Part shown: piece after piece, positions 8,365 through 59,740 of the stretch
How positions within the stretch are numbered: the first letter of the stretch is position 1
How the letters are laid out: the number at the start of each line of letters is the position of its first letter
Source: Neocallimastix sp. 'constans'
Taxonomy: Eukaryota
DNA length: 64,000 bases
Direction of reading: 5' to 3'
Assembly: GCA_050613775.1 (NCBI GenBank)
Contig: JBODTK010000015.1
Span: forward strand, 496,001-560,000
Program-made: the position numbers and the translations under genes
Notes under the pieces: model-generated
The model's database searches: none
What the model was told of the DNA's origin: nothing
The model's input: the letters and a program-made list of their open reading frames with translations, nothing else

Positions 8365-8413
8365 TTTTTCAATTATTAATTTCTAATATATTCAAATTTA
8401 ACTATTGAACTCC

Positions 8414-8470
<57 letters not shown>

Positions 8471-9240: not shown

Positions 9241-9278
9241 TAATATTTATAGTTTAATTTATTATTATTTATCAGCAT

Positions 9279-16406: not shown

Positions 16407-16675
16407 GATTAAGAGTCTCAACTCTTCAGTTGAGCTATCAAATAAAGCTAAGTTGAAATAAATAAACATAATATTTTTTTTATATCATTCATAAACTAAT
16501 AAAAATATATTTTTATTATTCTTATAATATTCATTATAGAAACAAAATATAATAACCATTATTAATAAACAAACATTACAGAGCAATATTGAGTGTGTTG
16601 AGGATATAAGTTGTTAATTATAATATATATTGTAATAGTTCATAATTAAAGTATATATTGCAATAGTTCATAGTT

Positions 16676-17010
16676 ATTATTTTTTCAAAAATAAATTTAA
16701 ATATATAAATACCAAAATAAAAAAATAATTAAATTAAAATTATTATTTTTTCAAAAATAAATTTAAATATATAAATATACCTAAATAAAAAAATAATTAA
16801 ATTAAAATTTTAAAAAATCATTAAAATAAAAATAATAGTCAACTAGCTAAGTTGTAAATAATTGTTAATAAAATAAAAATAATAGTCAACTAGCTAAGTT
16901 GAAAATAATTGAAAATAAAAATAAAAATAATTGTAAAATAGCTTAAGTTGAAAATAATTGAAAATAAAAATAAAAATAATTGTCAAATAGCTTAAGTTGA
17001 AAATAATTAA
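16676..17010. repeat. Short tandem duplications: two copies of about 66 bp, then about four imperfect 47-48-bp units containing (AAC)TAGCT(T)AAGTTG
   Basis: Direct visual match of the repeated units. Confidence 0.7.
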
Positions 17011-17425
17011 ATACAAAAAGAAATAGTCATTTAAGTCATCAAGACTATTAATAATTAATGAAAAATTAACTATTTATTCAAGTTAATAACTATTTTTAAC
17101 AAAATATTAATGAAGAACTTAAAAAATTAAAAACTAATATAAACAGAGACAAACAAAATTACATTAAGAAATTAACATTATAAATATAAAATTTACTAAT
17201 AGAAAAAATAAGAATAATGATATTTATGAAAAATAAATCATAACTAAATTAATATATAACAGAAGCAATCAAGTACAAAACTTATTCAAATAAATTCAAA
17301 TAAAAAAATTCAAATTAAATTAAATAATATTAATTATTCAAATTATTCCTATAGTAATAATAGAAATTTTAATAATTAAAGTTTTACACAAAACTTTAAT
17401 AATGTTCAACAAATAAATTAAAATA

Positions 17426-20400
17426 TGTCAGAAATAAGTTTAATATAATTAATAAATAATTAATAAATAATTAATAAAAAATAAATAAATATAAAATAAG
17501 TATAAAATAAATTTTAGTGTAAATAAATAAATATAGTTATAAAGAATAAATTTATGTATACTGTGGCGTATATCATTTAATGATATATATCATATGAATC
17601 GATGTAAAATTATTATAGATAGGAATATAAATTTTAAATGTAAATAATACTATGTAGGAAATTTTCTTGAACAAAAATTTAATAAATAAAAAGTGTGATT
17701 TATAACAGATTAAGAGTCTCATTGACTCAATAAGTGAGTGTTAATAATTTATTGTGTTTAGTGTATTTTTAATAAGTGTGAATAAAATGACAAACAAGGA
17801 AAATGCTACCTTGGAAATCTTGGATAATTCCAATTTTAAATCATGGAAACAAGATTTGTTTCTTTTACTACAAGAAAGAGATTTGGAAAATTATATCTTA
17901 AAGGAAAGCATTAAAAAAATTTCCGAAGATGAAATACCTGAAGAAGAATGAAAGAATTATAAATCAGTTCCAGGAACAACAAGAAAATTCTATGATAAAT
18001 CTGTAACTAAGCCTATGTTAAAATGTGATGCCAGGGTCACTTTAATATTGAAGGTTTAAAAGACACACTCCCAAAAATAAATAATAAATATAAATGCAAG
18101 ATATGTGCAAAATCTAAGTTAAGAAATTTCCCTTTTATTCAAATATTAAAAGAGCAAGTGAGCCTTTTGAATTAATCCATATGGACACAGTTACTATTAG
18201 CGACTAATCTTTATACGGAAATAAATATATCTTATCTATCTTAGATGATTATTCAAGGTTCGGTTGGGTCATCTTCTTAAAATCCAAAGGTGACGTATTT
18301 AACGCTTTTCATAATTGGTTTTTAAAGGTGAAGAATATTTTTAATAAAAGTGTCAAACATCTTAGAACAGATAATGGAACGGAGTTTTCCAATAACAACT
18401 TTGATAATTTCTGTAACTTAAACGGTATCATTCATGAATACACTGTTCCTTATTCTCCTCAACAAAATGGAAGGATTGAACGCCTTCACGGTTCTCTTAT
18501 TCCTAATGCTAGAGCTATGTTGGAGGATGCACACCTTAATCACGTATTTTGGGAAGATGCAGTTGCTACTGCTAATTTTATATATAATAGAATCCCACAT
18601 AAAGGTATCAATAACAATGTTCCTTATGAACTTCTTTATGATGAAAAAGTGGACTTCGAGAAATTTAGAGTATTTGGATGTCAAGTTTTTTTTTATGTAC
18701 CCAAACAACTACGTAACAAATTAACCAACTCGGCTTTACCCGGAATATTTCTTGGATATGATAATAACCCCTCGGCTTTTCGTATTTATGATATTACTAA
18801 TAATAAAGTAGTTATCTCTCGTGCCGTTGTATTTTTTGAAGACTCACCCGGTAACTGTGATGCCCCTTCTTCTTCTCCGGACTTTATTAATCTTACTCCT
18901 TATTATGAAAACGGGGGAAGTGATATTGACGATGATATTGGTTTTCATAATAATAATAATAATATTAGTGATAATAATAATAATATTAACAATAATATTA
19001 TTGATAATGATAATTATAATAACAATAATAATATTAATCCAAATAATAATAATAATAATAATATTAATATTAATGATAATAACGAAAGTGCAGTCATAAA
19101 TACTCCATATAATAATATTAATACTAATAATAATGAAGTCAATAATGAAAATAATATAAATATTAATAAATATAATATAAATAATACTTCTCCAATTAAT
19201 CAAAATAATATAATTTATTCAAATAATTATAAAATTTTTTATGATCCACAGAATAACAGAAATTTAATTTTGTATCCAGCTCAAAAAATTTTTTCTGAAT
19301 CAGCCAATAATTTAAATAATAATAATTTACAATTAAATAATAATATATATAATAATTTAAAACAAAATTTTTCTTCTCCAAAACATTATTATGAGGATTT
19401 CAATTCTCAAAGTGGTCATTTAAAATAATTCAAATGGCAATTTTGAAAATTATAATATCCAAAATAATAATTATTCTGAATTAAATAATAAAAACTATAA
19501 TAATAAAAATGATAATTTAAATAATAATAAAATTAATAATTATTCAGGAAATGAAAATTTAAATTTGAATTTAATTCAAAAAAGTAAATTATATGATCAA
19601 AATTCAAATTTAACACAATTAAATAAACAAACAGGAAATTCAAATAATACAGGAAACAATTTAAACAATTTAATTTCAAATGGCAAGAAAAATGAAATTA
19701 GCAATAATGAGTATAATTCATATAATAATTCAAATAATGATTTTAATTCAATTAACAATGTAAATAAAAAAAATTTAATTGAAAATTTAAAAAATAAAAA
19801 TTTAATTGAAAATGTAAACAAACCAGGAAGTAGCAATGATAATATTATTAATAAACATAATTTAAATAAAAATAATGAAATTACAAATTTAAATAATTAT
19901 AATTATGAAATTGAAAATAAATTAAATAATTCAATTAACGAAATTGAATTTAATAAAGGAAAAAAAATAAATAATTATAATTTAAAAAGAAAATTAAATG
20001 AGAGTGAAAATAATGTAAACAAAAAGTATAAACAAATAATGACGAATATCTTAATAACAAATAAGACAATAGAATTAGACCCACCATTAACCTATGAAGA
20101 AATATTCGATAGACCAGATAAAAACTCATGGATAGAAGCTATAAATAAGGAATTAAAAAATATGGAAGAAAAGAAAGTTTTTGAAATAGTCAATGAAGTA
20201 CCAAAAGAAAAAAATTTAATCAGCTGCAAGTGGGTTTTTAGTTATAAACGAAACGATAAAGGTAACATAACAAAATATAAAGCAAGGTTAGTAGCAAGAG
20301 GATTTTCACAAGTGTATGATGTGGATTATGTTGACACTTTCTCACCTACCCTTAAGCAAGATTCTCTGAGAATAATTACTTCTATAGCTATTTATAATAA

Positions 20401-21899
20401 TTTTAATATATATCAATTGGACATCAAGGCTGCCTATCTAAATGCAGAAATTAATGAGGAATTGTATATGGAAATTCCTAAAGGTATGGATGTAGGAGTG
20501 TATATTAAATTAAAAAAGGCTATATATGGATTGAAGCAAGCTGGCCGCCTCTGGAATGATAAAATAAATAAAACACTCCTAGAACTTAAGTTTGAAAGAT
20601 TAAAAAGTGAACCTTGCGTGTACATACTGAAAGATAAGTATAAAAATATTTTATGTATTATTGCAATCTATGTTGACAATATATTAATAGCAGGGAATAA
20701 TAAAACAATAAATAAAGTTAAATTAGAAATAAATAAGTATTTTGAATTAAGCGATATTGGAAATGTAGACTTCATTGTAGGGATAAAATTTATAAAATGT
20801 AAAGATGGTTACATTTTACATCAATTAAGATATCTAGAAAAAATATTAGATAAATTTAAAATAAACGAAAATGAAAAGGCATCTAATATGATCAATATAG
20901 AAAATAAAAAATTAAAAAATAGAAAATTTAACCCAAAGGTATATATGCAAGCTGTAGGTTGTCTGTTATATCTTGCCATGGGCACCAGACCGGATATTAT
21001 GTTCGCTACTAGTAAGGCTTCAAGAAAGAATAAAAATCCAACTTATGAAGATTGGATTAATGTTTTAAAAATATTTAAATATTTAAATTATACTAAATAT
21101 TATGGAATAAAAATATCAAAAAATATAAATATAGCTGCTTACGTCGACGCTGACTTAGGAGGGGACGAAGAAACAAGAAGATCTACTAGCGGATTTTTAA
21201 TAATCATGGGAAATACGCCTATAACCTGGTATTCTAAATTACAACATTTTGTGGCTGTTTCTACTGCTGGAAGTGAATATTATAGTTTGAATGAATGTGC
21301 TCTAAAGTGTATGTGGTTAAAAAATCTACTTAATGAGTTAGGTATAAATATAAAATATATATATATATAAATGTAGATAATAAAGCTGCTATCTATAATA
21401 GTAAAAATGAAAGTATAAATCAAAAATCAAGACACATAGATTTAAAATATCACAAAATTAGAGAATAAGTTAAAGAGGAAAAAATAAAATTAAAGTATGT
21501 AAAATCACAAAATAATTTAGCTGACTTTTTGACAAAGAATCTGAATGGGTCCATAATGAAAACGTTACGAGACACTTTATTAACGAAAATCCAAGAATAT
21601 TAAACTTACGGGGGAATGTCAGAAATAAGTTTTAATATAATTAATAAATAATTAATAAATAATTAATAAAAAATAAATAAATATAAAATAAGTATAAAAT
21701 AAATTTTAGTGTAAATAAATAAATATAGTTATAAAGAATAAATTTATGTATACTGTGGCGTATATCATTTAATGATATATATCATATGAATCAATGTAAA
21801 TTTATTATAGATAGGAATATAAATTTTAAATGTAAATAATATTATGTAGAAAATTTTCTTGAACAAAAATTTAATAAATAAAAAGTGTGATTTATAACA
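17426..21899 (+). mobile_element. Ty1/copia element 'Copia-D', internally deleted (most of gag and the protease missing)
   Basis: LTRs 17426-17707 and 21617-21899 (TGTCAG..TAACA), nearly identical; 5-bp TSD AAATA; PBS GATTAAGAGTCTCA; PPT ACGGGGGAA. Confidence 0.95.
17787..21603 (+). pseudogene. Copia-D gag-pol remnant (gag N-terminus fused at about 18035 to IN-RT-RH)
   Basis: LRTDNGTEF, PQQNGRIER, YKARLVARGF, QLDIKAAYL, YVDN (YVDD mutated), YVDADLGG; several stops and frameshifts. Confidence 0.92.
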
Positions 21900-23981
21900 A
21901 AATAGAGTATCTGAGAAATTAATTTAACAAAACTTTTTATATTCAATAAAATTTTAATTTATTACAATATTCATTTTTATTTAATACATTTCAGATTTTA
22001 ATTTATGATTTTAAAATGTCCAATTATATCAATCCATTAAAAATAATATTGTTGAAAATTAAATGTAAATTGATCAATTGAAATTACTTTATTAACTTCA
22101 TTTTATTAAAAATAATATAATATACATCTTAATATATCATAACAATAACATTACATGAATCATAAATGTATTACATAAATATTTATAATGTAACAAGCCA
22201 CATTTTACATACATAAATTTACTTAATAAATTTTACTATATATAAATTTGTATAACTATATAATTAATAATGAAATAGGAATAATATTAAACTTTATTTT
22301 CAACAATTGTTTTATTAAATGAAAATTAAATCAAATTCAATCTATAATATAAATTTCATTATTTTTGCTAAACTTTAATCAATAATATTTAATCTAATCC
22401 ATCAATATTAATAACAATTTAAATTTTTTTTTAAAAAAAATATATTATTAATAATATTTAATCTAATCAATCAATATTAATAACAATTTAAATTTATTTT
22501 TTAAAAAAAAATATATTATTAATATTTAATATTTATAAAGATTATTTTCAGATAATCAATACAAAATAATTTAAATTATATTATTTAAATTATTTATTAG
22601 TGATATGAAATGATAATAAAATAAGAAGATAGGTAAAAATATCATAAAATAATTATAAAATATAAATGTAAATAATTATTACGTATTAAATGAAATTAAT
22701 GTATACAAAATGTAAGGAATTAATGTAAAACAAATGGATAAATAGTAAATAGGAAAAATTATATTAATTAGAGTTTAGGAAATATTTTATTATAGTCATA
22801 TAGAAAAATAGTAATTATATAACATTTATTAAGAATAGGAATTTTATTAGAGAATATCATTATAACACCTGACATTTACTCCTTAATATATTTAATATAT
22901 TTCATAGTAAACATCATATCTTATAATAATAATAACATTTACAATTAAAATAAAATATAAATAGTACAAAAATAGTTCATTTGTTCAGAGAGGAAAATAG
23001 TTCATAAATATACAATTAATAAATAAAAAGATCAAAAAAAGAAACTATTCTTAAAACCTCTCTTTAAGTGACTAAAGTTAATTTCTTAACTGAACCTTAT
23101 TAAATTGGTGGAAATATCGGTTCAGGGAGGAAGTATAATAATTTTTACAAAATTTAATTTATTTCATATATAAATTTCTATTTACAATAACTTAAAGAAT
23201 CCTTTATTTGAATTATATCAATTTAAAAAGGTGATTTAATTTATAATTAGAAGTTAAAGAAGAGTTTGGATGAAGAACTTTTAATTATAGAATTAAGGAA
23301 GATTGAATATATTTTAAATTAGTATTGCGAATGGTTATTAATATAGAAATTTTGATTAAATTTTAAATTTAAAAAAAAAATTTTTTTACATATATTATTT
23401 TTATATATTATTTCAATATATTATTTCAATATATTATTTTATATAGTAAATTATTTTATTATATCTAATAATCATATTTAATTATAAATTTTTATTTTTA
23501 TAGTTGATAGTGATTTTAATATTATTATATTTATATATGTTAACCCCTAGCTACATTATAATTATACATTATACATTGTAATATTAATACGCCACTATAA
23601 GCCACATTATGAATACATTAGTTATTAGATAGTTATTAAATAGTTATTATAAATCTTATTTATTATATTTTGTTAAACTGTAATATTCTTTATTATGTAA
23701 TATTCATATAATTAAATATAAATAAATAAAAGTCATATTAACTAAAATAATCATAATTGAGATTGTGAGATTTCGGTTACATTCTTAACAAATTAAGAGT
23801 CTCACTTACCTAATGAGCTATTAGCTATAAAAATACAAAAATTAAATTAAACAAGCTTGTTATAATTAAAATATTAAATAAATAATTTAAAATTTACAAA
23901 TTCAAAAATTATTGAAATTAGATTTCAAAATTTAAATTTTTTTTTTAAAATTAATTAAAATTCAAAATTATAAATTCCAAA

Positions 23982-28513: not shown

Positions 28514-29049
28514 TGTAATGCGCTGGTCACTTATAGCAATAGGCAACACTGGAAAATTAATAATAAGTTAAAATGTTTTTTTAAAAAATTTTGTTTTATT
28601 AATTTATTAAAATAAAATTTATTAAAGTAATTATTTATTAATTAATTAACTAATTTTGTAATATATCAAATTACTTATTATTAATTGATTAATTAATAAA
28701 AGCACGAATTAAAAATATTTCTTTTGTGAAAATTTAACTCATATTTATACTTTTTACGGAAAAACAGTTTGTATGATTTTCAAAAATTTTAGAATCTTAG
28801 AAAAATCGTTTAAAACTGATTTTCTCTGTTAATTTAGAAACTAATGGAAGAAAGGATAAAATAAAATAAAAAATTCAATTTAATTATTAAGAATTTCTAT
28901 GAAATTCTTAAAGAAAATACAGAAAGAATTAACTAGAACAATGAAAATAAAATTTTCAAAAAGTAAGTTTAAGTGTGAATCAAACTTGAGTAGTTCTATT
29001 CATGACTATAGCTCTAACAAATATACCAAGATTTCCTTTTACAAATTGT

Positions 29050-30032
29050 TGATAAATAATAAAATTATTAAATTAAAATAAATAATAAAGAACAAATTCT
29101 TGTTAAAGTTTTCTAGCTTAATCCAAAAATTAATCCATTCTAAAAAAAATTAAATCCATATTAAAGAAAATTTAATTAAATAAAAATAATTAAAATAAAA
29201 TAATAATAAATTAATTAATCATTAGTAATTTTAATTAAAAAATAAAATAAATTAATAAATAATATTTTTCTAAAACTACAAATAAACAAAATAATAAACA
29301 AATTTAATAAATTATAAATAACAAATAAACAAACTTATAAACATCTCAAAATTAAAATTAACTAGTTAAATAATTTTTAAGTTACTTTTATTTAAAATAA
29401 TGATTACTTTATTTATTTTATAACTCAACTTTTATAAACAAATTGTAATTAAAATAACATTTTAAAACTCATCTTTATTAATATTTTAATTGTAAATATT
29501 GTTTAATTTAATAATAAATTATTCTTTATTTCTCTTTTATTAATTTTATTATTTTTAATGTAAATAGTTTAAAATCAAAGAAAAATATAAAAACATGTAA
29601 ATATTTCTTATAAATTATTCTTTATTATTAATTATTTAATAAATTATTATAGATATTTTATTAGTTTTTAATAATCAATTTTTCATGATTATTAATTATT
29701 TTGATAAATTATTATATATTTTATTAGTTATTAATAATCAATTTTATTATTAAAATTTAAAATAAATTAGTATAAATAATAAATATTTCATTTTATTATT
29801 TTATTAGTTTTAACAATTATTTTATTAATTTAAACAAAATTAATTATTAAATAAATAAAGATTAATATTAAAATAAAAATAAATTTTTTTAATAAAACAT
29901 TTTTGTATTTAATAATAAAACATATTTATTTTTTTTTTCAAATTTCTTAAATCAATTTTATTCAGTATTTATCCTTTTATTCACTTCTACAAAATTTAAT
30001 TTTTGTAGATTAAGAATATTAGGTATAAATCA
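29050..30032. repeat. LTR-like direct repeat, copy 1 (about 980 bp), flanked by TTGT on both sides
   Basis: TGATAAAT..TAAATCA termini; highly similar to 32084-33118; inverted homologue of 9279-10917. Confidence 0.85.
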
Positions 30033-32083
30033 TTGTTTGTGTATGAAATCATAATTATTCAATAATGAATAATTAATATTTCTTATAATGTTAAGATAAT
30101 AACTGAATTTCAATTCAATTTCAATTTCGATAATTCAGTTATTTGAATTTCAATATTAATAAATAATAATAATATAATAATTATTATTAAATTAACTTTA
30201 TTAAAATATTTAGGAATTAGTCTAGGCCAACTAATTACTAAATATTATTAACATATTGAAATTAATATATATTAAATAATATAAACACGTGATTGTCATT
30301 AAACTAATTTCTACATAATATATTTTAATTATAAAATATAATATTTAGCTATATTAGATTCTTATATTTTATTTATATTAAATATTTATATTATTATCTT
30401 ATTTTATATTATCAATATCAAACTTTTATTAATGCTATTGCATATTCATATTAATAATTAATATTTTAATAATTAATTATTTTATATAAATACATGTTTA
30501 AATCTTTTGATTAATCCTTTGTAGGATTATTGTAATTTAAATTATAGTAATAATTATATAAAATACTAATGTAATAAAATATTATTAAGATTAAATAAAA
30601 TTTATATTTTAAATAAAAAACTTATTCATAAAATTTACTAATAACAATATGTTTTAAATAAGTGTAAATTTAAGTTATATATTAATAAATTACTATAATT
30701 TGGCATCTTGACCTAATCGTTAAGACCAAATTATTACAAAACTTTGACATATAATTAATGAAAAATAATTAATAATTTATAATTATTTATAAAATAATAA
30801 TTGTTTTTAAAAAATAATTATTTAAATAATAATTAATATATTCATTGATTTTAACTTATAAATTTATTTAATAGTTATATTTTCATATATTGATCTAAAT
30901 TTATTTACATATTATAATTTATACATTTATATAAATAATATAAAATTTATTTACATATTATTATTATTATTAATATTAATATTAAATTATTAATTATTAT
31001 TATTTAACAAAACTTATGGATAATCTGATAGTATACCCTGTCTGACGTGCAGTTTGCCTCTTCACGACGTACCACGGCTACTGTATTCAATATAAAATAC
31101 AGCAGTCCAGAGCCTACTAGCCCAATTACTATGTAGGTTAAACTTAGCCCGGAAATCTATATCCAAGTATTTGTTAAATAATTTAATTAATAAATAATAT
31201 TAAATTTTATTTTTCTAATATTCCCCGATATCTCCATCATAAATTATGCTATGGTTCGGGTTTTATTAGAATTTTTATTTAATTATTTATTTTTAATATT
31301 TTTCTGTCTACATTTTAATTATTGAAAAACTTCACTTATTTATACTTTTTGAAAAAAAAATAAATAAGTAAAGCCTTTCTACATTTTATTATCATATTTA
31401 AAAAAAATAATTTACTATTACTAATTACTTTAAATTTTATATTAATTTAAATAAACTAATTCATAAGTATTTTTATTTTAATAAATTTTGTTTATATAAT
31501 TTTATATTATTTTTCATATACTAAAACTAAATTATTTAATATAGGCAAAGAAACAAACAAAATTTAAAAAGATTTTACAGAAAAATAAAGTTATTTTAAT
31601 CAAGAATGTTAATATAATATTCTGATATTTTATATAAAATAAATTTAAAAACTATAATATATTTAATATTTATTATTAATCAATTAATATTTGATTTTAT
31701 TTGTGGGGAATAAAAATAATCAATTTAAAAATAAAATAAAATACTATAAAGAATACAAGTTTAATATTGATACAATATAATAATAATATAATAATATATT
31801 TGAATAAAAATAAAATATTAATATTGATAATAAACACTTTAATAAAATAATAAAATTTAAGGCTAAATTATAGATATTGATATTAATAATAAAAATATAG
31901 AATTATTGATAATATATAAGAAACTTTTAATAAAAATATAAAAAAAAAATATATATATATTTATAAAATAATTTAATATAGAAAATATAGTAAAGTAAAA
32001 TTAAGTAAAGAACAATATAATGAATTCTAAAATAAGTTGAAATTCTAATTAATAATCCATTATATGTTCGTTCTTTACCATGT

Positions 32084-33118
32084 TGATAAATAACAAAATT
32101 ATTAAATTAAAATAAATAATAAAGAACAAATTCTTGTCTAACTTAACCCAAAAATTAATCCATTCTAAAAAAAATTAAATCCATATTTAAGAAAATTTAA
32201 TTAAATAAAAATAATTAAAATAAAATAATAATAAATTAATTAATCATTAATAATTTTAATTAAAAACTAAAATAAATTAATAAATAATATTTTTTTAAAA
32301 CTACAAATAAACAAAATAATAAACAAATTTAATAAATTATAAATAACAAATAAACAAACTTATAAACATCTCAAAATTAAAATTAAATAGTTAAATAATT
32401 TTTAAGTTACTCTTATTTAAAATAATGATTATTTTATTTATTTTATAACTCAACTTTTATAAACAAATTGTAATTAAAATAACATTTTAAAACTCATCTT
32501 TATTAACATTTTAATTGTAAATATTGTTTAATTTAATAATAAATTATTCTTTATTTCTCTTTTATTAATTTTATTATTTTTAATGTAAATAGTTTAAAAT
32601 CAAAGAAAAATATAAAAACATGTAAATATTTCTTATAAATTATTCTTTATTATTAATTATTTAATAAATTATTATAGATATTTTATTAGTTCTAATAATC
32701 AAAAAGTATGATTATTAATTATTTAATAAAATTATTATAGATTTTTTATTAGTTTCAATAATCAAAAAGTATGATTATTAATTATTTAATAAATTATTAT
32801 ATATATTTTATTAGTTATTAATAATCAATTTTATTATTAAAATTTAAAATAAATTAGTATAAATAATAAATATTTCATTTTATTATTTTATTAGTTTTAA
32901 CAATTATTTTATTAATTTAAACAAAATTAATTATTAAATAAATAAAGATTAATATTAAAATAAAAATAAATTTTTTTTTTATAAAACATTTTTGTGTTTA
33001 ATAATAAAACATATTTATTTTTTTTAAATTTCTTAAATCTATTTTATTCAGTATTTATCCTCGTATTCACTTCTACAAAATTTAATTTTTGTAGATTAAG
33101 AATATCAGGTATAAATCA
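32084..33118. repeat. LTR-like direct repeat, copy 2 (about 1035 bp)
   Basis: Same termini as copy 1; preceded by TTCTTTACCA (decayed minus-strand PBS TGGTAAAGAAC) and followed by TTGT. Confidence 0.85.
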
Positions 33119-37506: not shown

Positions 37507-37600
37507 AGTTATTAAATAGTTATTATAAATCTTATTTATTATATTTTGTTAAACTGTAATATTCTTTATTAAGTAATATTCCTATAATTAAATATAAATA

Positions 37601-39051
37601 TGATATGAAATAGGAATTTATCTTGTTTCCCATTTCATAACTATTATGATTTTTATACTTGTCCATAACAAGTCTTTATATATTTAAATAATAACACTTA
37701 AATAAAAATATTTAATTCATTTTTAAATAAAATATTGTTTTATTAATATTCTAATATTTATAGGTAATTAGTAAACCTTTAATACAATTCTTTTATAACA
37801 TAATTCTAATAATCAAAATATAAAATTAATCAATATTAATTCTAATAATCAAAATATAAAATTAATCAATATTAATTCTAATAATCAAAATATAAAATTA
37901 ATCAATATTAATTCTAATAATCAAAATATAAAATTAATCAATATTAATTCTAATAATCAAAATATAAAATTAATCAATATTAATTCTAATAATCAAAATA
38001 TAAAATTAATCAATATTAATTCTAATAATCAAAATATAAAATTAATCAATATTAATTCTAATAATCAAAATATAAAATTAATCAATATTAATTCTAATAA
38101 TCAAAATATAAAATTAATCAATATTAATTCTAATAATCAAAATATAAAATTAATCAATATTAATTCTAATAATCAAAATATAAAATTAATCAATATTAAT
38201 TCTAATAATCAAAATATAAAATTAATCAATATTAATTCTAATAATCAAAATATAAAATTAATCAATATTAATTCTAATAATCAAAATATAAAATTAATCA
38301 ATATTAATTCTAATAATCAAAATATAAAATTAATCAATATTAATTCTAATAATCAAAATATAAAATTAATCAATATTAATTCTAATAATCAAAATATAAA
38401 ATTAATCAATATTAATTCTAATAATCAAAATATAAAATTAATCAATATTAATTCTAATAATCAAAATATAAAATTAATCAATATTAATTCTAATAATCAA
38501 AATATAAAATTAATCAATATTAATTCTAATAATCAAAATATAAAATTAATCAATATTAATTCTAATAATCAAAATATAAAATTAATCAATATTAATTCTA
38601 ATAATCAAAATATAAAATTAATCAATATTAATTCTAATAATCAAAATATAAAATTAATCAATATTCTAATTTTATTTAAAATATTATATACTAATTTTAC
38701 TGGATAATTAGGAACATTTATTAAAATATTATTTCTAATAACTATTTATACTAATTCTTCATTTTAAAGTTATGTTTATAAACAATTATTTATAAAATTA
38801 TTTAACTATTTAATATTTATAATATATTTATTTCTTATTTTTCTTAACTTTATTTATATTAATTATTAATTAAATATTTCGTTTCTTATCAATATCTCCA
38901 CCCTTTAAGACATAACTTCGTCCCTGAAGTTATTAAAAGAAAAAAAATTATTAAATAAGAACGAAATATTCTTGATTTCAGGTTCATATCTAGTTGTTAT
39001 TCACAATTTCAGTAGCAATGTTCAGAATTGTTTATACGAAGGTTTTCTTTT

Positions 39052-39096
<45 letters not shown>

Positions 39097-39679
39097 AAAC
39101 TAGAGAGAATTTTTATACTTCCCCTCCCTCCTTAGGAAAAAGCCCTGATAGCCGAGCTTTGGATTCTCCACCATTGATATGAAATAGGAATTTATCTTGT
39201 TTCCCATTTCATAACTATTATGATTTTTATACTTGTCCATAACAAGTCTTTATATATTTAAATAATAACACTTAAATAAAAATATTTAATTCATTTTTAA
39301 ATAAAATATTGTTTTATTAATATTCTAATATTTATAGGTAATTAGTAAACCTTTAATACAATTCTTTTATAACATGATTCTAATAATCAAAATATAAAAT
39401 TAATCAATATTAATTCTAATAATCAAAATATAAAATTAATCAATATTAATTCTAATTTAATTTAAAATATTATATACTAATTTTACTGGATAATTAGGAA
39501 CATTTATTAAAATATTATTTCTAATAACTATTTATACTAATTCTTCATTTTAAAGTTATGTTTATAAACAATTATTTATAAATTATTTAACTATTTAATA
39601 TTTATAATATATTTATTTCTTATTTTTCTTATTAACTTTATTTATATTAATTATTAATTAAATATTTCGTTTCTTATCA
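37601..39679 (-). mobile_element. TRIM-like miniature gypsy-type element inserted in the Copia-C 3' LTR
   Basis: 5' LTR 39175-39679, 3' LTR 37601-38891; 283-bp non-coding interior; PBS TGGTGGAGAATCC from 39173; PPT AAAGGGTGGAGATAT; 4-bp TSD AATA. Confidence 0.93.
37801..38664. repeat. Minisatellite, 24 copies of the 36-bp unit TAATTCTAATAATCAAAATATAAAATTAATCAATAT
   Basis: Printed lines repeat every 180 nt (5 units); 864 bp = 24 apparently identical units. Confidence 0.97.
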
Positions 39680-40089
39680 AATAAATAAAAGCCATATTAA
39701 CTAAAATAATCATAATTGAGATTGTGAGATTTCAGTTACATTCTTAACAATATATATTATAATTTTAATAATTCATTTTATTATATTTAATTATATATGA
39801 ATTTATATATTATTTTGATAGTTGAGAGTATATAATTTATAATTTTAAATTTAATTCATTTTCAAATTACAAATATTGAGTCATATTGATATAATATCTA
39901 ATATAATTCAATATATTTATAATTGTTATTGTTGATTTATTTATTCTTATATTATATTGAATTATAATTAATTTTATAACTTGATATATTTATATTTATT
40001 ATTTTAATACGTTATATTCATTATAGATTTTATTAAAAGTCATTTAATATAATAATATATATTGCTTTATATATTGTTACATTTAATAT

Positions 40090-46260: not shown

Positions 46261-47522
46261 TGTAACGATTTTAATGATTTATTTTATCTCACTAGGTCAT
46301 TGTAGATGTGTTCACTGATAAACAAACTACTAAATGTGAGAATTTATTATTTATTATTACACTAAATTATTTTATTATTTAATATTTTCATAATTATGGT
46401 TTTATATTATTTTTTATTTAATATTAATATTAAGATATGTTATTTTGTTAATATCGACTCAAAGAGTCAAAATAAAATAATAATACATGATTTTTATATT
46501 CAAAAAGTTTATAATTAAAATACATGATTGGTTTAGAATTATATGAATATATGATAATTATTTAAATAAATATTACTATTAAATAAATGAATGAAAGAAT
46601 TAATAGCTAAATAAATATTTTATTCCATGGATTAGATTAGGGTGAGTTGCGCATCAGCTGTAGCCTGTACCGGTAGTGAGTTTATTCGACATTTTGGAAC
46701 ATTATTTTAAGTTAAAGTATTTCAGATAGCTGGTAGCTTGCTCCTCTTGATGGATGCACACTTGGTTTGACGAAAATCAGGGTTCCACTTAATGAACGGA
46801 TAACACAGATACAAAGCTTGATAGATGGATGTTTGTTCAGATAGATAATTTCACAAACTTTTAAAAACCATAATTATTTTTATCAGAGATCACCAATCAG
46901 GATTCAGAAAATAAAAGAAGTAATAGAGTTCATAGCAAGAGTAAATTTATATAAAATATTATTAAAACTTTTGAATATAAATATAATAATAATGAAAGGT
47001 TAGTGGTACGTTGGAGTGGATTAACACATCTACAACAAGGTAGCGAGTGTATTTTCAACGGGAGTCGATATTGTAACTATTTTAATGATTTATTTTATCT
47101 CACTAGGTCATTGTAGATGTGTTCACTGATAAACAAACTACTAAATGTGAGAATTTATTATTTATTATTACACTAAATAATTTTATTATTTAATATTTCA
47201 TAATTATGGTTTTATATTAATTTTTATTTAATATTAATATTAAGATATGTTATTTTGTTAATATCGACTCAAAGAGTCAAAATAAAATAATAATACATGA
47301 TTTTTATATTCAAAAAGTTTATAATTAAAATACATGATTGGTTTAGAATTATATGAATATATGATAATTATTTAAATAAATATTACTATTAAATAAATGA
47401 ATGAAAGAATTAATAGCTAAATAAATATTTTATTCCAAAAGGTAATCAATAAGATTCAAACCAGTGACATTTAGTATGTAAGGCAAGGTAGGCACCATTG
47501 AGTAACGATAACCAAGATATAA
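46261..47522 (-). mobile_element. Second copy of the TGTAAC..TTACA family, internally deleted: 5' LTR 47072-~47522, leader 46628-47071, partial 3' LTR 46261-46627
   Basis: Reverse-complement match to 12544-13455; the deletion joins leader to LTR at a shared TATTCCA. Confidence 0.88.
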
Positions 47523-50395
47523 TTTGTGTGATAAAAAGTAACAATTACCTTAATTTAGAAATTATTCTAAAAGTGGTAATTGCCTATCAAAAGTTTTTTA
47601 TACCTTATTATTTATTATGTTAGAAATAAGTTTAATATTATTAATATGAAATTAATATATAATTAATAAATGTATATAGTTAATAATAAAAAAGTATGAA
47701 ATCATAAATATAAAATATATGTATAAGTATTAGTGGCGTATTTTATCAGATGATATATACCACACATATATATATGTAAAATTATTATAAAATGTACTCT
47801 ATAAATAATTAACAATGTAATATTTTAATATACGAAAAGAAAAAAAAACTTCTTAATAAATTTAATAAAGTGTAATTTCATAACAGATTAAGAGTCTCAA
47901 GACTCTACGTTAATAATAGTGAATTTATATATATAATGTGTGTTTTTAAATTTTAAAAGTGCGTGTTTTAAAATTCCAAATAGTGTGTGTTTTAAAGTAA
48001 AAAAAATTTTAATAATAAAATTAAATATATAAAATGAGTAATAAGGAGGAAAATGGAACTAAAGATATTTTAGATAGTTCCAACTATAGATTATGGAAGC
48101 AACAATTATATTTACTTTTAAAAGAAAAGAAATTAGAACAGCATGTTCTTAGGGAAGTAATTAAAAAGGTTCCAAGTGATAAAGTTAGTGAAGAAAAATA
48201 GAAAACTTTAACTTTAGTTGATGGAACAACAGATTTTTATTACAGTGAAGGTACTTCCGAAAAATCTATTGTTGATGATGCTACATCTAAGAAATACTTT
48301 ATGAATAGTATTTCTAATGATTTATCAATCAAAATAGATTTTATGTCATCAACAGTGTATGAAATATTCAAATTAATTGCCACGTTAAATCAACGTAGTA
48401 GAAGTGAGAGAATAGAAGAAATTAAAGAAGAATTAATAAAATTAAAATATGATCCAGATAACGACGGCGCTTTATCTATATTCATATCTGATATGAATTT
48501 AAAATTCAAGACATTAGAAAATCTTAAAAAGAAATTAGAATATCAAGATAAATTTAATTATTTATATAGTATTATTCCAGATGATTTAGCTATAAAGTCA
48601 AATATTTTATGTTGTGAACCTAATTGGGAAGAAACAACTACACGTTTAATTAAAGTTTCTCAACAATTAAAAAGCATTCAAGAAATTATTATCAAAAAAG
48701 AAGAGAGAGCATCTACTCTAAATGTTGAAACAAAAATTAATTCTAATTATATTCGTAGTAATCAAAATAGTAATAGCATAACGTGTAATAATTATAATAA
48801 AATTCAAAAGGTAATAATTACAGTCAAAACCAAAAAAGAAATATCTATAATGGTAATATTAAATCAAGAAATTATAATAATAATAATAATCAACAAAATA
48901 AATCAAATAAAAATAATATTAAATGCTGGAATTGTGGAAGGTTTGATCATTTTTCTGATGAATGTAAATCAAATGATAATTATTATAATAATAATAAACG
49001 AAATAAAAATCAACAAAGGCATAATAACTACAAAAGGGGAGGCACCGTGTAAATAGGATACAATATAAAAATGCAGAAGTTAATAATATAAATAAAAATT
49101 ATATTGATAAACACTAAGACTATTTCTTCAAAGATTATAATAATGATTCATATAATTTTGAATCAAATAATAATTTTTGCAAATATTCAAAAAACCTTTA
49201 GCCAATGCAAAAATTAAAATATTACATGTGCAGTAATTCATCAGAAGATAAGAAAAATAATAAAAATGATAAAAATAAGTTAAACACGTGGACAGTTGAT
49301 TCTGGTACTACTTTTCATATGACCGGAGATTTAGAATGTCTATCCGATATAACAAAGTTCAATAAAAGAATATACTTTGAAAATGGAGAAAATATAAAAT
49401 CGAAATTTATAGAAACATATAAAGGGTACATTAATGATAATAAAATAAATTTAAAAAATGTTTTATATGTACCTGTAACATGAATAATAATATAAATAAT
49501 TTTATAAATGAAAATAATAATATAAATAATTTAAATAATTTACCATTGATATACAACTCAAAAGTTTGATGTACTTTTGTTGGGATTTATTTATTAAATT
49601 TATTAATTTATTATTTATTTATTTATTTATTTAATTTTTATATAGAAACTATATATATTTAAAAAGACTATTTAACAACTTTCTTATAACTTTTAATCTT
49701 AACTTTTACACAACAACGACTCGACACTACTCTTAATACAGAGAAATACTTTATTTTTATGTTATTTAGTTATAATTAACTATTTAATTAATTGTTCTTG
49801 TGATTAGAATAAACTATTAATAATTATTATTTAAGGAAATATTTAAAAACTATATAAATATAAATATAAAATAATAAGAATATAATTAAAACATTGATTT
49901 ATGCTATAAAATTTATTATTAATTATAAATATAAATAATATATAGAAATCAAGCCACATATTGAAATTGTTGTAAAATCATTAGATTTAAATTTGATTTA
50001 TGACATTAATTTATGTATGAATAATAAAAAATAATTTTATATTAATTAAGGTTTGAATATTTCATTTTATATCACCATATTACTATAATAGTGATATAAA
50101 TTATTGTGATCCTTCCATTTATGGTAAAAATTTTTATGGCAAATATTATTATGATAATCTGATAAAGTACGAAGTTGTTAGAAATTAAGTTTAATATTCC
50201 AGATATTTTAATATAATATGATTATTTAATAATAATTTATTTTTATAATATTTTATAAGTTATATATAATTTAATAATAAATAAAAATTTATTAATAAGA
50301 AATAATTAAGTGAATGAAAACACGATTTAAATAAATAAAAACTTCATGTAAACAAAAAAATTAAATGTATGAATTTAAGAAATAACGCGTGTAAT

Positions 50396-50426
<31 letters not shown>

Positions 50427-50657
50427 TAAAAAAATAAAAGTGATAATTTTACAACAGATTAAGAGTCTCAAGTGCTCTTAAGTATATGATAATATTGTAA
50501 AGGAATAATTAATTAAATGAAGTGTCAAAATAAAATAAAACTATAAAGTTTATTATATTAATTAAATAATTTAAAAGTAAAGTAATATTATAAAAATAAA
50601 GAGAATAATAATTGATAGAAATTAAAATTAAAATTTTAAAGGAAGGGAAGACTAAGA

Positions 50658-51674
50658 ATGAACGTCGAAAAAAACGCTACAAAGGATATTCTAAATAACA
50701 CAAACTTTAGGTTGTGGAAACAGGAGTTCTACCTTTTGCTTAAGGGAAAAAGATTGCAAAATTTTATAATGAATGAGGTCATTAAAAAAATTCCCGAAGG
50801 AAAACTTAGCAAAGAACAAATAAGAAAGCTAACATTAGTAGATGGAACGAATGATATGTACTATGATGAGAGTGTAACTGACGAAATGGTCCAGTCAGAT
50901 GCACTTGTTAAGGAATATCTTTTAAACAGCATTCCAATTGAACTGGCTGAGAAATTTGATTTTATAACTTTAACCGCATTCGAAATTTATGAATTAATTA
51001 AAAGTATGAACATGAATGATGACAATGATTTAGTAGAAGAAATCAAAAACTCTCTTGAAAAAGAAAAGTACATTCCTGATAATAATATCTCTCTATCCAT
51101 TTTCATTTCGAACATGAAAGCAAAATTCAGAGAGTTAAGCACATTGAGATGTCAATTAACTGAGCAAGAGAAGATTGACTATCTCTACAACAGTATTCCT
51201 GACGATTTAGCATTAAGGTCTAATGCTATTATTTTTAAAGGTTCGTTTGAGGATTTTGCCAGCTTACTTATCAAAACAAACCAAAGACTTATAAAATTCT
51301 CTGAAAGAAGAAAGAAAAATGAAACCGGAAATCAAAGTAATGAGTCTATAGCTATTGGAAATAATGGTATACTTGGAAATAATAATAATCAACAGGGTGA
51401 GAATATGGATAATAATAACGAGTATGTTGAATCAAATTTTAATAACTCATTCTCGCATAGTAAATATAGATATCAAAGAAAAGGTTTTAAAAATAAAGAC
51501 TATCAAAGAAAATCCGAAAAATATAATAAAAGTACAGTAGAATGCTGGAATTGTGGAAAAAAGGGACACTTCGCCTCCGAATGTAAATTCAAAAGAAATG
51601 GAAAAAATAATTATAAGAGATACAACAGTAAAGAAACAAATAAAGGGAGGCATATCACTAAACACAGAAATTGA
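50658..51674 (+). CDS. gag: Copia-A Gag (338 aa)
   Basis: LNNTNFRLWK copia gag N-terminal motif; CWNCGKKGHFASEC zinc knuckle. Confidence 0.93.
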   Translation: MNVEKNATKDILNNTNFRLWKQEFYLLLKGKRLQNFIMNEVIKKIPEGKLSKEQIRKLTLVDGTNDMYYDESVTDEMVQSDALVKEYLLNSIPIELAEKFDFITLTAFEIYELIKSMNMNDDNDLVEEIKNSLEKEKYIPDNNISLSIFISNMKAKFRELSTLRCQLTEQEKIDYLYNSIPDDLALRSNAIIFKGSFEDFASLLIKTNQRLIKFSERRKKNETGNQSNESIAIGNNGILGNNNNQQGENMDNNNEYVESNFNNSFSHSKYRYQRKGFKNKDYQRKSEKYNKSTVECWNCGKKGHFASECKFKRNGKNNYKRYNSKETNKGRHITKHRN

Positions 51675-54600
51675 AAAAAATAAACAAAATGAGGATACGC
51701 ATATGAACTATTTCTTTGAGGATTACAATCAATCATATGCGGAATCCAACCACAACACTTCAGCATTACCATTTAAAAATAAAAGTTATTACATAAAAGA
51801 CGATACACAAAACAAAGAGATGTCAAATAAAAATAATAATTCAATTCAAAAAATAATTCCATGGACATTAGACTCCGGTACAACTTACCACATGACCGGA
51901 AACGTAGATCTTTTAGATAATAAGAAAGCCTTCAATAAGAAAATATTTTTTGCTAATGGAGATTATGTAAAATCAAAATACATAGGAGAATTTAATGGAT
52001 ACATAAATGACAATAAAATTTCATTAAAAAATATTTTATTTATTCCAGAATTCAAAAGAAATTTGATGTCAGTAGATTGTTTGACTGATAGTCACTTTAA
52101 AACGGTATTTTTCAAAGATAACAATATCAATAAAGTATCAATATACAATAAAAATAATAATAAATTATTTACAGCATGTTCAAATAATACAAAAACATAT
52201 ACCATTTGGACATCAAAAAAGAAGTTCACATTTCCAATCAACAATGGTATATGCAATTACATTGCAGATTCAGACTGTGAAAGTTTATTTCTATGGCACA
52301 AACGACTTGGGCACTTCAACATAAATAATCTTCGACATATTTTAACAAAAATTAATACTAAGCAGCAGTGCCAAATATGTGCCAAAACAAAATTAAAAAA
52401 TTTCCCCTTCCAGCAAAATGACAATAGGGCCAAAGAACCATTTGAGTTGGTTCATATGGATACAGTCTCAATTACTGATGAATCCCTCTATGGAAACAAA
52501 TACTTCCTTTCTATTTTGGATGATTATTCCCGCTTTGGTTGGATCTTATTCTTTAAGTCTAAGGCTGAGGTTTTTCAAAAATTTATCTCATGGTATAATA
52601 TGATTAAAAATATTTTTGGAAGAAACATTAAATTTCTTCGTACGGATAATGGAACTGAGTTTACAAACAAGTTTTTTGAAGATTTTTGTACTAATAACGG
52701 TATTGTGCATGAATTCTCAATACCATATTCACCTCAACAAAATGGTCGGATAGAAAGACTACATGGCACTCTTTTCCCAAATGCTCGTGCCATTCTTGAA
52801 GAAGGTAAATTAAACCATGTTTTTTGGGAGGACGCCGTCTCTACTGTTAATTTCATTTACAATCGTATTCCCCACAGAGGTATTGGAAATTCTACTCCTT
52901 ATGAGTTACTTTATGATAATAAGGTTGACTTTTCTAAATTTCGTGTTTTTGGATGTAGGGTATTCTTTTATGTACCCAAACAATTTCGAAAAAAGCTTTT
53001 CAATTCTGCCCTTCCTGGTATTTTTATTGGATATGATACTAATCCATCAGCTTATAGAATTTATGATATCACTAATAATAAGGTGATTCTCTCTCGTTCG
53101 GTTGTTTTCTTTGAAGATATTCCTGGAAATTGTTCAGCTCCTTCTTCTCCTCCTGAACTTTTAAATTTTACTCCCTATTATGAAATCGAGGGAGATGATA
53201 TTTATAATGAAGATTTTCAGGTTGATAATTATTATAATAATAACAACAATTTAAATATGTCAAACAACAATTATAATATGGATAATTCAAAGGACAGTAA
53301 TAATACAAATAATACAGTTAATCAAAATGAAAATAAAAATAATAATAGTGAATACGAAAATGTACATAACAAGAATTTTAATCAAGAGGAAACAACATTA
53401 CAAAATAACAATTATAATAATAATAATAATAAATCTCAACAAGATGAATTTAATAATATTAATGAAAATGTTAATGAAAATGTGGATTATTTTATAGACA
53501 ATAATAAAGATAACGGTATAAATAATATTCCAAATACTAGTAATAATATTCAAAATAACAATAATGGAAATATGGACGAAAATAATAATTTAACAAAAAG
53601 AAAATTTATAGATGAGACCGAAAAGTTATATAAAAAATTCAGAATTACAAATAATTTAAATTTAAGTAAATTTAACGAAGATCAAGAATTAGACCCACCA
53701 CTAAATTTTAATGATATATTTGGAAGACCGGATGAAAAAAAATGGCTTGAGGCTGTAGAAAATGAATTAAACAATATGAAAATTAAAAAGGTATATTCAG
53801 TTGTAAAAAGCATTCCAAACAATAAAAATCTTATATCAAGCAAGTGGGTATTCAGTTATAAAAGAGATGATAAAGGTAATATTATCAAATACAAAGCAAG
53901 ACTGGTAGCTCGAGGATTTTCACAAATTTACGGTGTGGACTATGAGGAAACTTTTTCTCCAACTCTGAAACAGGACTCCCTCAGGATAATTACTAATTTA
54001 TCTGCATATTATAATTTCGATATGTATCAACTGGATATCAAAGCTGCATACTTGAATGCAGAAGTAGAAGAAGAATTATACATGGAAACTCCTGAAGGTT
54101 TCGAAAATCCTGGTTTTTGGAAGTTAAATAAAGCAATATATGGGTTGAAGCAAGCTGGAAGAATGTGGAATAACAAGATAAATGAAACGTTATTAAAATT
54201 GGGTTTTACAAGAACAAAAAGTGAACCATGCGTATATTGTAAAAGGGATAACAAAGGCAATATTTCATGTATATTAGCAATTTATGTTGATGATATAATT
54301 ATTTCAGGAAAGAAGAATGAAATAAATTATGTTAAATCCGAAATTAAAAATATTTTTGACTTAAGTGATATTGGACCTGTAGATTTCATAATAGGCATAA
54401 AATTTATTAAAACGAAATATGGATATATCATGCATCAATTACAATATTTAAATAAAATTTTGGAAAAATTTAAAATTGAAGAATATAATCAAATATCTAG
54501 TTTAACATATATTCAAGATGAAGAATTAAGAAAAAGAAGCTTTGATCCGAAGAAGTATATGCAAGCTGTTGGCAGTCTACTCTACCTTGCTATGGGTACA

Positions 54601-55215
54601 AGACCGGACATCCTATTTGCCACTAGTAAAGCTTCCAGAAAGAACAGAAATCCAACTTATGAAGATTGGATAAATGTAATAAAAATATTTAGATATCTAA
54701 AAGGAACAAAATATTATGGACTTTCTTATACAGGTAACATTAATCTGGATGTTTATGTTGATGCAGATTTAGGTGGAGATGAAGAAACAAAACGTTCGAC
54801 AACTGGATTCATAATTAATATGGGAAAAACACCTATTTGTTGGTATTCTAAATTACAGCACTGTGTTTCTATATCAACTGCAGAAAGTGAGTATTATAGT
54901 TTAAATGAATGTGCGCTTAAATGTATGTGGTTTAAAAACTTTATGAGAGAATTAAATATAAATACAGGTACAATTAAAATAAAAGTAGATAATAAAGCAG
55001 CTATATACAATAGTGAAAATGAAACTATTAATCCAAAGTCTAGACATATTAATTTAAGGTATCATAAAGTCAGAGAATTAGTAAGAGAAAAAGAAATTAA
55101 ATTGGAATACATCAAATCAGAAAATAATTTAGCGGACGGACTAACTAAATATCTTAATGGACCTTTATTAAACAAGTTTAGAAGAATAATGCTATGGCAA
55201 CTAAGAGGAAATTAA
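51553..55215 (+). CDS. pol: Copia-A Pol (PR-IN-RT-RH) in the +1 frame relative to gag; true entry probably about 51649
   Basis: WTLDSGTTYHM, LWHKRLGH..CQIC, VHMD/TDNG/RIER (DDE), YVDD, YVDADLGG..ADGLTK, all in one uninterrupted frame. Confidence 0.96.
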   Translation: MEKRDTSPPNVNSKEMEKIIIRDTTVKKQIKGGISLNTEIEKNKQNEDTHMNYFFEDYNQSYAESNHNTSALPFKNKSYYIKDDTQNKEMSNKNNNSIQKIIPWTLDSGTTYHMTGNVDLLDNKKAFNKKIFFANGDYVKSKYIGEFNGYINDNKISLKNILFIPEFKRNLMSVDCLTDSHFKTVFFKDNNINKVSIYNKNNNKLFTACSNNTKTYTIWTSKKKFTFPINNGICNYIADSDCESLFLWHKRLGHFNINNLRHILTKINTKQQCQICAKTKLKNFPFQQNDNRAKEPFELVHMDTVSITDESLYGNKYFLSILDDYSRFGWILFFKSKAEVFQKFISWYNMIKNIFGRNIKFLRTDNGTEFTNKFFEDFCTNNGIVHEFSIPYSPQQNGRIERLHGTLFPNARAILEEGKLNHVFWEDAVSTVNFIYNRIPHRGIGNSTPYELLYDNKVDFSKFRVFGCRVFFYVPKQFRKKLFNSALPGIFIGYDTNPSAYRIYDITNNKVILSRSVVFFEDIPGNCSAPSSPPELLNFTPYYEIEGDDIYNEDFQVDNYYNNNNNLNMSNNNYNMDNSKDSNNTNNTVNQNENKNNNSEYENVHNKNFNQEETTLQNNNYNNNNNKSQQDEFNNINENVNENVDYFIDNNKDNGINNIPNTSNNIQNNNNGNMDENNNLTKRKFIDETEKLYKKFRITNNLNLSKFNEDQELDPPLNFNDIFGRPDEKKWLEAVENELNNMKIKKVYSVVKSIPNNKNLISSKWVFSYKRDDKGNIIKYKARLVARGFSQIYGVDYEETFSPTLKQDSLRIITNLSAYYNFDMYQLDIKAAYLNAEVEEELYMETPEGFENPGFWKLNKAIYGLKQAGRMWNNKINETLLKLGFTRTKSEPCVYCKRDNKGNISCILAIYVDDIIISGKKNEINYVKSEIKNIFDLSDIGPVDFIIGIKFIKTKYGYIMHQLQYLNKILEKFKIEEYNQISSLTYIQDEELRKRSFDPKKYMQAVGSLLYLAMGTRPDILFATSKASRKNRNPTYEDWINVIKIFRYLKGTKYYGLSYTGNINLDVYVDADLGGDEETKRSTTGFIINMGKTPICWYSKLQHCVSISTAESEYYSLNECALKCMWFKNFMRELNINTGTIKIKVDNKAAIYNSENETINPKSRHINLRYHKVRELVREKEIKLEYIKSENNLADGLTKYLNGPLLNKFRRIMLWQLRGN

Positions 55216-55847
55216 ACTTACGAGGGAGTGTTAGAAATTAAGTTTAATATTCCAGATATTTTAATATAATATGATTATTTAATAATAATTTATTTTTATA
55301 ATATTTTATAAGTTATATATAATTTAATAATAAATAAAAATTTATTAATAAGAAATAATTAAGTGAATGAAAACACGATTTAAATAAATAAAAACTTCAT
55401 GTAAACAAAAAAATTAAATGTATGAATTTAAGAAATAACGCGTGTAATAATTAAAAAAAAAAAAAAAAATAAATAAAAAAATAAAAGTGATAATTTTACA
55501 ACAGAAGTTCAGGTTCGGCTCTTTTAAGGTTTATTCTTTATTTGGGGGATATAATTTATGTTTTATAAAAATAATTTTTATTTAAATTTTATTTATTTAG
55601 AAGAATTACATTTACTTATCATTATTAAAAATTATAAACTAACATTTATTCTTAACATTTAATATTTAATTTCATATTTTGATCTCAAGAATTACACTAA
55701 TCTACTATTTTTTATTCTTGGACAAAGAAATAAAACTATTTCTAAATATTTTTCTCTTTTATAATTATTTACTATAATAAAGTTTTCCTATATTAAAGTA
55801 TAATTATTAATTTACTTTCATTTATGTTTAAATTAAATAATAAAAAT

Positions 55848-58061: not shown

Positions 58062-59740
58062 TTTGCTTTATTATAATTATAATAATTTAAAACAAAAATT
58101 TTCTCCTCATGTTTTAAATTATCTTCATTTAAATTTCCAAAGTGGCCATTTAAATAATTTAAATGTAAATTTTGAAAATGATTATAACTTAAAGGATTAT
58201 AGTAATAATTATTTATTTTCTGAAAGTGATAAAATTAAAAACAATAATTTAATAAATAATAATAACAATTTAAATAATAATAATAATAATAATTCAAATT
58301 TAAACAATAATAATTTAAATTTAAATTCAACATTTAAAAATAATCAAAACCAAATTCAAGAATACACTGGAAATAATTCAGGAAATAATATAAATTCAAA
58401 TAAAAAACAGGATATAACAAATAACATTGATAATAATAATAATAGCAAAGGTAATTATTCTGAATTAAAAAATTTAATTAAAAATGATTTAAATTTAAAT
58501 AAAATAAATAATAATTTGAAAAATGTAAACAAAGACTCAAATTCAAATTTCAAAAATGTGAATGAAGAATTAAATTTCAATAATAATGGGAATAATAATA
58601 TCAATAATAATAAAAATAAAATTGACGAAAATTCAATTTTATATAAGGAAATTTTAGTTAATAAACAATTAAATTCAAATTTTAAAAATAATTTAAATTC
58701 AAATAAATAATTAAATGTAAACAAACATTTAAATTTAAAAATTGAAGATTCTCTAAATAATAATGAACTTATTTCGAAAGATTTTAATATACTTAATAAG
58801 GTAAGAGGAAATTTAATGAAGAAGTTTAGAACGATATAAATAAAAAAATAAAAAATTTAGCTAATTTTGAAATACTTTCTTATGATAATGAAGTATTGAA
58901 CCCTCATACAAACTATGATGAAATTTATGGTCGACCTGACAAAAAACTATGGTTAAAGGCTGTGGAAGATGAATTAAACTATATGAAGAATAAAATAGTA
59001 TATAAATATGTCTTCCGTATTCCCAAAGGTAAAAATGAAATATCCTGTAGATGGGTTCTGCACCAGTTACATGGTATTCCAAACTTCAACAGTGTATAGC
59101 AGTTTTAACAGCTGAAAGTGAGTATTATAGCCTTAATGAGTGCACTCTTAAATGTTTATGGATAAAAAATCTTCTAAATGAATTAAATATTGGATGTATG
59201 ACAATAAAAATTGATAATAAAGCTGCAATTTATAATAGTAAGAATGAAATAATTAATCCCAAGTCAAGTCATATAGATTTAAAATACCATAAAATTAGAG
59301 AATTAGTAAAAGAAAATAAAATAAATTTAAAATATATAAAATCTCAATATAATTTAGCTGATGGACTGACTAAATATTTGAATGGTACTTTAACTAATAA
59401 ATTTAGAAATGCTTTATTATATAAAATTTAGTATATTAAACTTACGAGGAATTGTTAGAAATATGTTTAATATTATTAATATGAAATTAATATATAATTA
59501 ATAAATGTTTATAGTTAATAATAAAAAAATATGATATCATAAATATAAAATATATGTATAAGTATTAATGGCGTATTATATCAAATGATATATACCACAA
59601 ATATATATATGTAAAATTATTATAAAATATATGCTATAAATAATTAACAATGTAATATTTTAATATACGAAAAGAAAAAAAAACTTCTTAATAAATTTAA
59701 TAAAGTAAAATTTCATATTAATATTATTTATTATTATTAA

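Follow-up and report, generated by a model that had tools for sequence, protein, structure and literature searches.

Copia elements in a Neocallimastix contig carry a primer-binding site predicted to pair with the anticodon arm of tRNA-Lys(CUU)

Copia elements of the window

The window, that is the whole stretch of 64,000 nucleotides of Neocallimastix sp. 'constans' DNA analysed here, has a GC content of 0.10-0.34 per 2 kb and holds five primer-binding sites (PBSs) of one type (Table 1). The PBS at 50457 is that of the youngest copia element, which extends from 50176 to 55503 and is nested inside the element of the 47886 site. Its LTRs, with 1 substitution over 275 aligned columns, are bordered by the target duplication GAAGT, and the domains Pol_BBD, gag_pre-integrs, rve, SH3_retrovirus and RVT_2 follow one another within 51541-55212. 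Being nearly intact and young, with LTRs one substitution apart, it would be a usable test object. An assembly error can be dismissed for the 50457 site, since an independent DNA contig (X11 record 1) covers 50448-50937 with 0 differing letters. RNA contigs of run X15 match parts of this element; from contigs of this kind neither transcription nor the ends of a primer can be read.

In the 50457 element, gag and pol each have an ORF of their own; the two ORFs overlap, and that of pol is in the +1 frame. The same arrangement was observed in 3 of the 8 metagenome copia loci examined (L002, L014, L059), and a single ORF instead of separate gag and pol was seen in L035 and L061. Among the matches listed, the contigs of other runs contain no indel in the gag-pol overlap. 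The reading frames suggest that a programmed +1 frameshift may be used in the lineage of this element.

Table 1. Features of the 50176-55503 element and the other four primer sites of the window
Feature	Position	Strand	Remarks
PBS behind LTR-like stretch 16247-16406	16407..16420	+	D-arm-complementary extension
PBS of copia element	17708..17721	+	LTRs 17426-17707, 21617-21899; target duplication AAATA; 5-bp fold-back arm
PBS, first base A, 13/14 paired	23791..23804	+	degenerate copia element; D-arm-complementary extension
PBS of copia element hosting the nested 50176 element	47886..47899	+	LTRs 47618-47885, 59453-~59716; then 6-bp fold-back arm
5′ LTR (TG...CA)	50176..50456	+	target duplication GAAGT before it
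PBS, complement of tRNA-Lys(CUU) nt 27-40 (proxy tRNA), directly after LTR	50457..50470	+	
Downstream arm	50473..50481	+	D-arm pairing 6 bp past 2-base bulge, p=0.10, or fold-back
gag ORF with zinc knuckle	50640..51674	+	
pol ORF, protease-integrase-RT-RNase H, i.e. copia order	51541..55215	+	+1 frame relative to gag
Polypurine tract upstream of 3′ LTR	55220..55228	+	
3′ LTR, then GAAGT	55229..55503	+	

A TG...CA LTR pair together with a 5-base target duplication and a polypurine tract (PPT) was found in full for the 50457 and 17708 elements and in part for the 47886 element. The LTRs of the 17708 element show 4 substitutions in 282 positions. In the case of the 47886 element, in which copia coding was identified by tblastn, 13 substitutions in 264 were counted, the 3′ end of the pair is altered and the TATTA duplication is tentative. 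The match of its 3′ LTR (59453-59720) ends 4-5 bases short of where the 5′ LTR stops; here, either a mutated end or the use of an internal CA at integration is conceivable, and in the latter case TATTA would be present on both sides.

Copia domain pieces were found in the 17708 element and also in the 23791 element, where a 5′ LTR (23538-23790) is followed by gag/pol pieces up to ~28600 and a 3′ LTR was not found in place. The 23791 LTR is present once more at 37507-39750, where it is split by an inserted element with a long 36-base tandem array. The remaining site, 16407, is preceded by a 160-base LTR-like stretch carrying the motif AAGCCACA, which is common to the 23791 LTR. Neither a partner LTR for this stretch nor copia coding behind the site was found (0 tblastn matches in 16407-17424 and 21900-23600), so that 16407 is only presumed to be a copia site. 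A candidate partner at ~22050-22320 was rejected, its alignment being at shuffle level. The 16247-16406 LTR is possibly a 3′ LTR or one that two elements in tandem have in common. Upstream of it lies a copia integrase remnant (14892-15239), and a purine-rich run precedes the stretch.

A primer site complementary to a proxy tRNA-Lys(CUU)

The motif RATTAAGAGTCTCA matches exactly at all five positions, 16407, 17708, 23791, 47886 and 50457, each time on the plus strand and with A as first base of the copy at 23791. There is no further exact match on either strand of the 64-kb window, and 100 dinucleotide shuffles of the window contained none (mean 0.00, largest 0; 0 of 100 with any match). All five sites are flush with the ...ACA of an LTR-type end without a spacer. 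Two observations of the earlier note on this DNA were borne out here: the terminal CA of the LTR is never followed by TGG (5 of 5 sites), and the LTRs are partly dissimilar despite the common site, with 8 of the 10 pairs among the five LTRs aligning no better than shuffles. The site was therefore retained while the LTRs diverged. The note had counted all five as copia PBSs, which is borne out by copia coding downstream at four sites and is presumed at 16407, where copia coding and a partner LTR were not found. The primer-site feature is real and, as discussed below, largely known already.

As tRNA we used a proxy, a eukaryote-type tRNA-Lys(CTT) called by ARAGORN in viral contigs, which may differ from the host tRNA. 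With nt 27-40 of this proxy (anticodon 34-36), 14 of 14 bases pair at four sites and 13 of 14 at 23791, in agreement with the identification of the reverse complement proposed in the note. The predicted duplex with the proxy has an energy of -20.1 kcal/mol at the fully paired sites and of -17.9 at 23791. ARAGORN detected no tRNA gene in the window, nor in the 60 metagenome loci scanned among at least 121. A general tRNA-Lys pattern retrieved mostly prokaryote-type genes from the viral contigs, and the matching arm was present in one distinct Lys(ctt) sequence; the PBS pattern occurred in these contigs at 5 loci, none of them with copia matches. We infer that the anticodon arm of the host tRNA is the same as that of the proxy.

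A metagenome scan for ACA followed by the motif delivered at least 122 stretches from at least 121 loci, and the element was found in faeces metagenomes and in two isolates. This occurrence, the low GC content and the Orpinomyces proteins among the RT relatives are in keeping with an anaerobic gut fungus as likely host. Copia coding beside the motif was detected at 25 of the 121 loci listed, by Pfam analysis of 71 downstream ORFs and by tblastn. At the other 96 of the 121 loci listed, copia evidence is absent from the available flank, and many of these loci are chance matches or have short flanks. The first base is G in 25 of 25 copia loci compared to 66 of 96 others, among the loci listed; the constant G of the copia loci fits a pairing with C40 and a primer ending at C40. 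The reverse transcriptases linked to the common site are about 30-38% alike between lineages. Another group of AT-rich loci represents non-coding LTR elements with a PPT, an LTR and the identical Lys PBS. This family (L031, L038, L048-L050, L056, L063, L069, L081, L093, L094, L101, L110, L121) is also characterised by AAGCCACA within the LTR and by a strong fold-back arm, and the unit in L069 is ~1.07 kb long. Judged from their structure, these elements are likely non-autonomous dependants of the copia elements.

Mode of priming and the bases downstream of the site

The Ty1/copia PBSs described here most probably pair with the anticodon arm of tRNA-Lys(CUU), and a 5′ half of this tRNA, cut after nt 40, is the likely primer. 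The basis for this is the flush position behind the LTR, the 14-base complement to the proxy and the invariance of the site over dissimilar LTRs and over the divergent reverse transcriptases. The genomic RNA would anneal a tRNA-Lys(CUU) 5′ half with nt 40 as its last base, the tRNA being cut at or near this position as can be supposed by analogy to Drosophila copia and Ty5, and reverse transcriptase would then extend the 3′ end of the half-tRNA straight into U5 of the LTR. The bases behind the PBS likely assist: in the lineages of 16407 and 23791 they would pair onward into the D-arm, and in the lineage of 17708, 47886 and 50457 the prediction is that they cover the PBS by folding back and are displaced once the primer arrives.

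Two alternatives that the earlier note had named as refuting its reading, an intact tRNA 3′ end and the own transcript of the element, were examined. No site starts with TGG, hence there is no pairing with a CCA end. Priming by the transcript's own 5′ end, as in Tf1, requires a complement of about 10 or more bases, whereas the best partner of each PBS in its own LTR is a Watson-Crick run of 5-7 bases (-4.8 to -9.7 kcal/mol). Both signatures are detectable in the window, as neighbouring elements show a 10-base complement between PBS and LTR and three LTR pairs are of the TGG type. No supporting point was found for either alternative, and we regard both as extremely improbable. Since TGG and a Tf1-type self-complement are lacking, half-tRNA priming is the likely mechanism; as far as sequence goes, the proposal of half-tRNA-Lys(CUU) priming is supported, and the other two modes do not fit.

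The role of the following bases was analysed on the 22 bases downstream of each site in comparison to 400 shuffles of those bases, with the D-arm taken from the proxy tRNA. For these pairing tests the 25 copia loci were used without the duplicates L040, L041, L064 and L068. The 11 non-coding loci were chosen from 18 AT-rich unconfirmed loci, where those linked by blastn were kept and near-duplicates and unlinked loci were excluded, and 16 hand-picked non-copia loci served as controls. The short D-arm-like matches that had been pointed out earlier are present: TGCTCT at 50473-50478 past a 2-base bulge, CTCTAC after 47886, and TGAGCTA after 16407 and 23791. An extension into the D-arm is significant (p<0.05) at 16407 (p=0.012) and 23791 (p=0.010), in 4 of the 10 AT-rich and 6 of the 11 other copia loci, compared to 1 of 16 controls. 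For bipartite primer sites, known from Ty1 and Ty3 (PMC5371799), these counts are favourable, and a bipartite PBS throughout, with pairing to nt 27-40 as well as to the D-arm of the half-tRNA in all elements, is possible, if somewhat unlikely. The extension is not significant at 17708, 47886 and 50457 (p 0.10-0.12) and at none of the 11 non-coding LTR-family loci, the D-arm in the test is that of a proxy, and the CTCT letters shared by the D-arm and fold-back signals can pair either with the D-arm or with the PBS itself. The bipartite PBS assumed in the note thus stands for 16407 and 23791, and for the other three sites a fold-back is the better fit (p 0.007-0.02); the bipartite reading is confined to some lineages.

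The fold-back onto nt 1-11 of the PBS has p=0.020 at 17708 and 47886 and p=0.007 at 50457, where the downstream arm forms 8 bp, including one G-U, with the PBS bases 50459-50466. Among the copia loci elsewhere, p<0.05 was obtained in 8 of the 10 AT-rich ones and in 1 of the 11 others; the non-coding LTR loci gave it in 11 of 11 cases and the controls in 1 of 16. This test was made post hoc, after the sequences had been seen, and on related loci. In whole-fold tests of the 18 AT-rich unconfirmed loci, a hairpin with p<0.05 was found in 14. Folds of the 61-base junctions have z values of -0.63 to -0.93 for four sites and -2.28 for 47886, and the hairpin is part of the minimum-energy fold only at 50457 and 47886. 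Because of the post-hoc test, the related loci, the selection of 11 out of 18 and the unremarkable folds at four of the five junctions, the fold-back arm is a lead and not a result.

If the arm mimicked the anticodon loop and the RNA were cut behind it, the arm itself could be the primer. This fold-back self-priming could draw on the frequency with which the arm beats the shuffles, on stems closing at the first PBS base in several loci (among them L049, L056, L063, L093 and L110), and on the GalEa copia elements of fungi, where a Conserved Hairpin Site replaces the PBS (Donnart 2017, PMC5445492). All 14 PBS bases are invariant, however, including TCTCA in the hairpin loop which is relevant only to tRNA pairing, and this argues against the arm as primer. 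In addition, the arm is absent in 10 of the 11 other copia loci and at two of the five window sites, and the stems of coding elements comprise only 5-9 bp. We therefore consider fold-back self-priming very unlikely. Less remote, and still unlikely, is a combination with half-tRNA-Lys priming, in which a fold-back arm copying the anticodon loop would gate the site in a copia lineage of gut fungi and in the non-coding elements depending on it; the half-tRNA would displace the arm, and the freed CTCT core would pair with the D-arm. Such a switch, if true, would mark an intermediate step linking tRNA priming with the hairpin that GalEa has in place of a PBS. The likeness to GalEa lies in a hairpin that immediately follows the 5′ LTR; GalEa has no tRNA-complementary PBS according to the description of its hairpin site, whereas the hairpin here is short, limited to a lineage and placed on an intact tRNA-complementary site.

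Relation to FunCo1 and other elements

The earlier note knew of no copia lineage primed by a half of tRNA-Lys. This claim of novelty fails, as the FunCo1 elements of fungi are reported with the PBS ATTAAGAGTCT, which complements an inner part of tRNA-Lys, and almost only from Pezizomycotina (Donnart et al. 2017, PMC5445492). The window sites match this PBS, and the elements differ in lying outside the host range of Pezizomycotina and in having Orpinomyces proteins (58% identity) as closest named RT relatives. The match here comprises 14 bases; in the passages of PMC5445492 on its PBS, FunCo1 is not explicitly given a half-tRNA primer, an extension into the D-arm or a fold-back arm. In RT-RNase H trees the window elements and the Orpinomyces proteins form one clade with an SH-aLRT of 95-96 (112 of 247 rows; 40 of 247 rows). 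Proteins from Golovinomyces and Fusarium (Pezizomycotina) form a separate clade together with a metagenome element with an identical PBS. A joint clade of both PBS-bearing groups was not rejected (p-AU 0.328) in a tree of 40 of the 247 rows that contains no labelled FunCo1 sequence. What appears to be new on these data is the host group and the separate RT clade, a shared origin with the Pezizomycotina-containing clade being not rejected (AU p=0.33). In a literature search that fell short of most subscription journals and of Repbase, no paper on primer sites of gut-fungal copia elements was found, and the literal motif led to unrelated papers only.

Priming from the anticodon arm of initiator tRNA-Met is established for Drosophila copia and yeast Ty5 (PMC5371799, PMC10886601). 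Likewise, the PBSs of the window complement nt 27-40 in the anticodon arm of the proxy tRNA and not a CCA end, but the primer predicted here, from sequence only, is the elongator tRNA-Lys(CUU). Half-tRNA-Met and half-tRNA-Ile are assigned to plant copia lineages, with 1/2 tRNA-Ile for Bianca (Neumann 2019, PMC6317226), and for Copia and Helenus elements of rust fungi the tRNAs for Tyr, Ile, Asp, iMet and Asn were predicted to prime through their anticodon loops (Kojima 2024, PMC10886601). Bianca and the rust-fungus elements share the identical predicted mechanism with a non-Met tRNA, and differ in tRNA, host and lineage.

With these findings the Lys-anticodon primer site, published for filamentous ascomycetes, is extended to what is likely an early-branching group of fungi, and to reverse transcriptase lineages with a mutual likeness of only about 30-35%. 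Given this spread and the distance between the reverse transcriptases, halves of elongator tRNA-Lys would be a primer in common use, of old standing or adopted more than once. The generation of the half-tRNA primer is still poorly understood. Sites of this kind would escape an annotation of transposable elements which seeks only matches to the 3′ ends of tRNAs.

Further LTR elements of other types are present in the window. Small elements at 46261-47437 (minus; LTR pair 46261/47072) and a related pair at 12546-14877 (plus) have a PBS starting with ATATCGACTC... and no TGG; the PBS of the 46261-47437 family has a 10-base complement within its own LTR, which is a signature of Tf1-like self-priming. 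Ordinary LTR pairs of the TGG type were detected at 29047-32805 and 37601-39470 (minus) and at 5687-9244 (plus), and the LTR pair 5687/8544 encloses an Asn-rich ORF of 480 aa.
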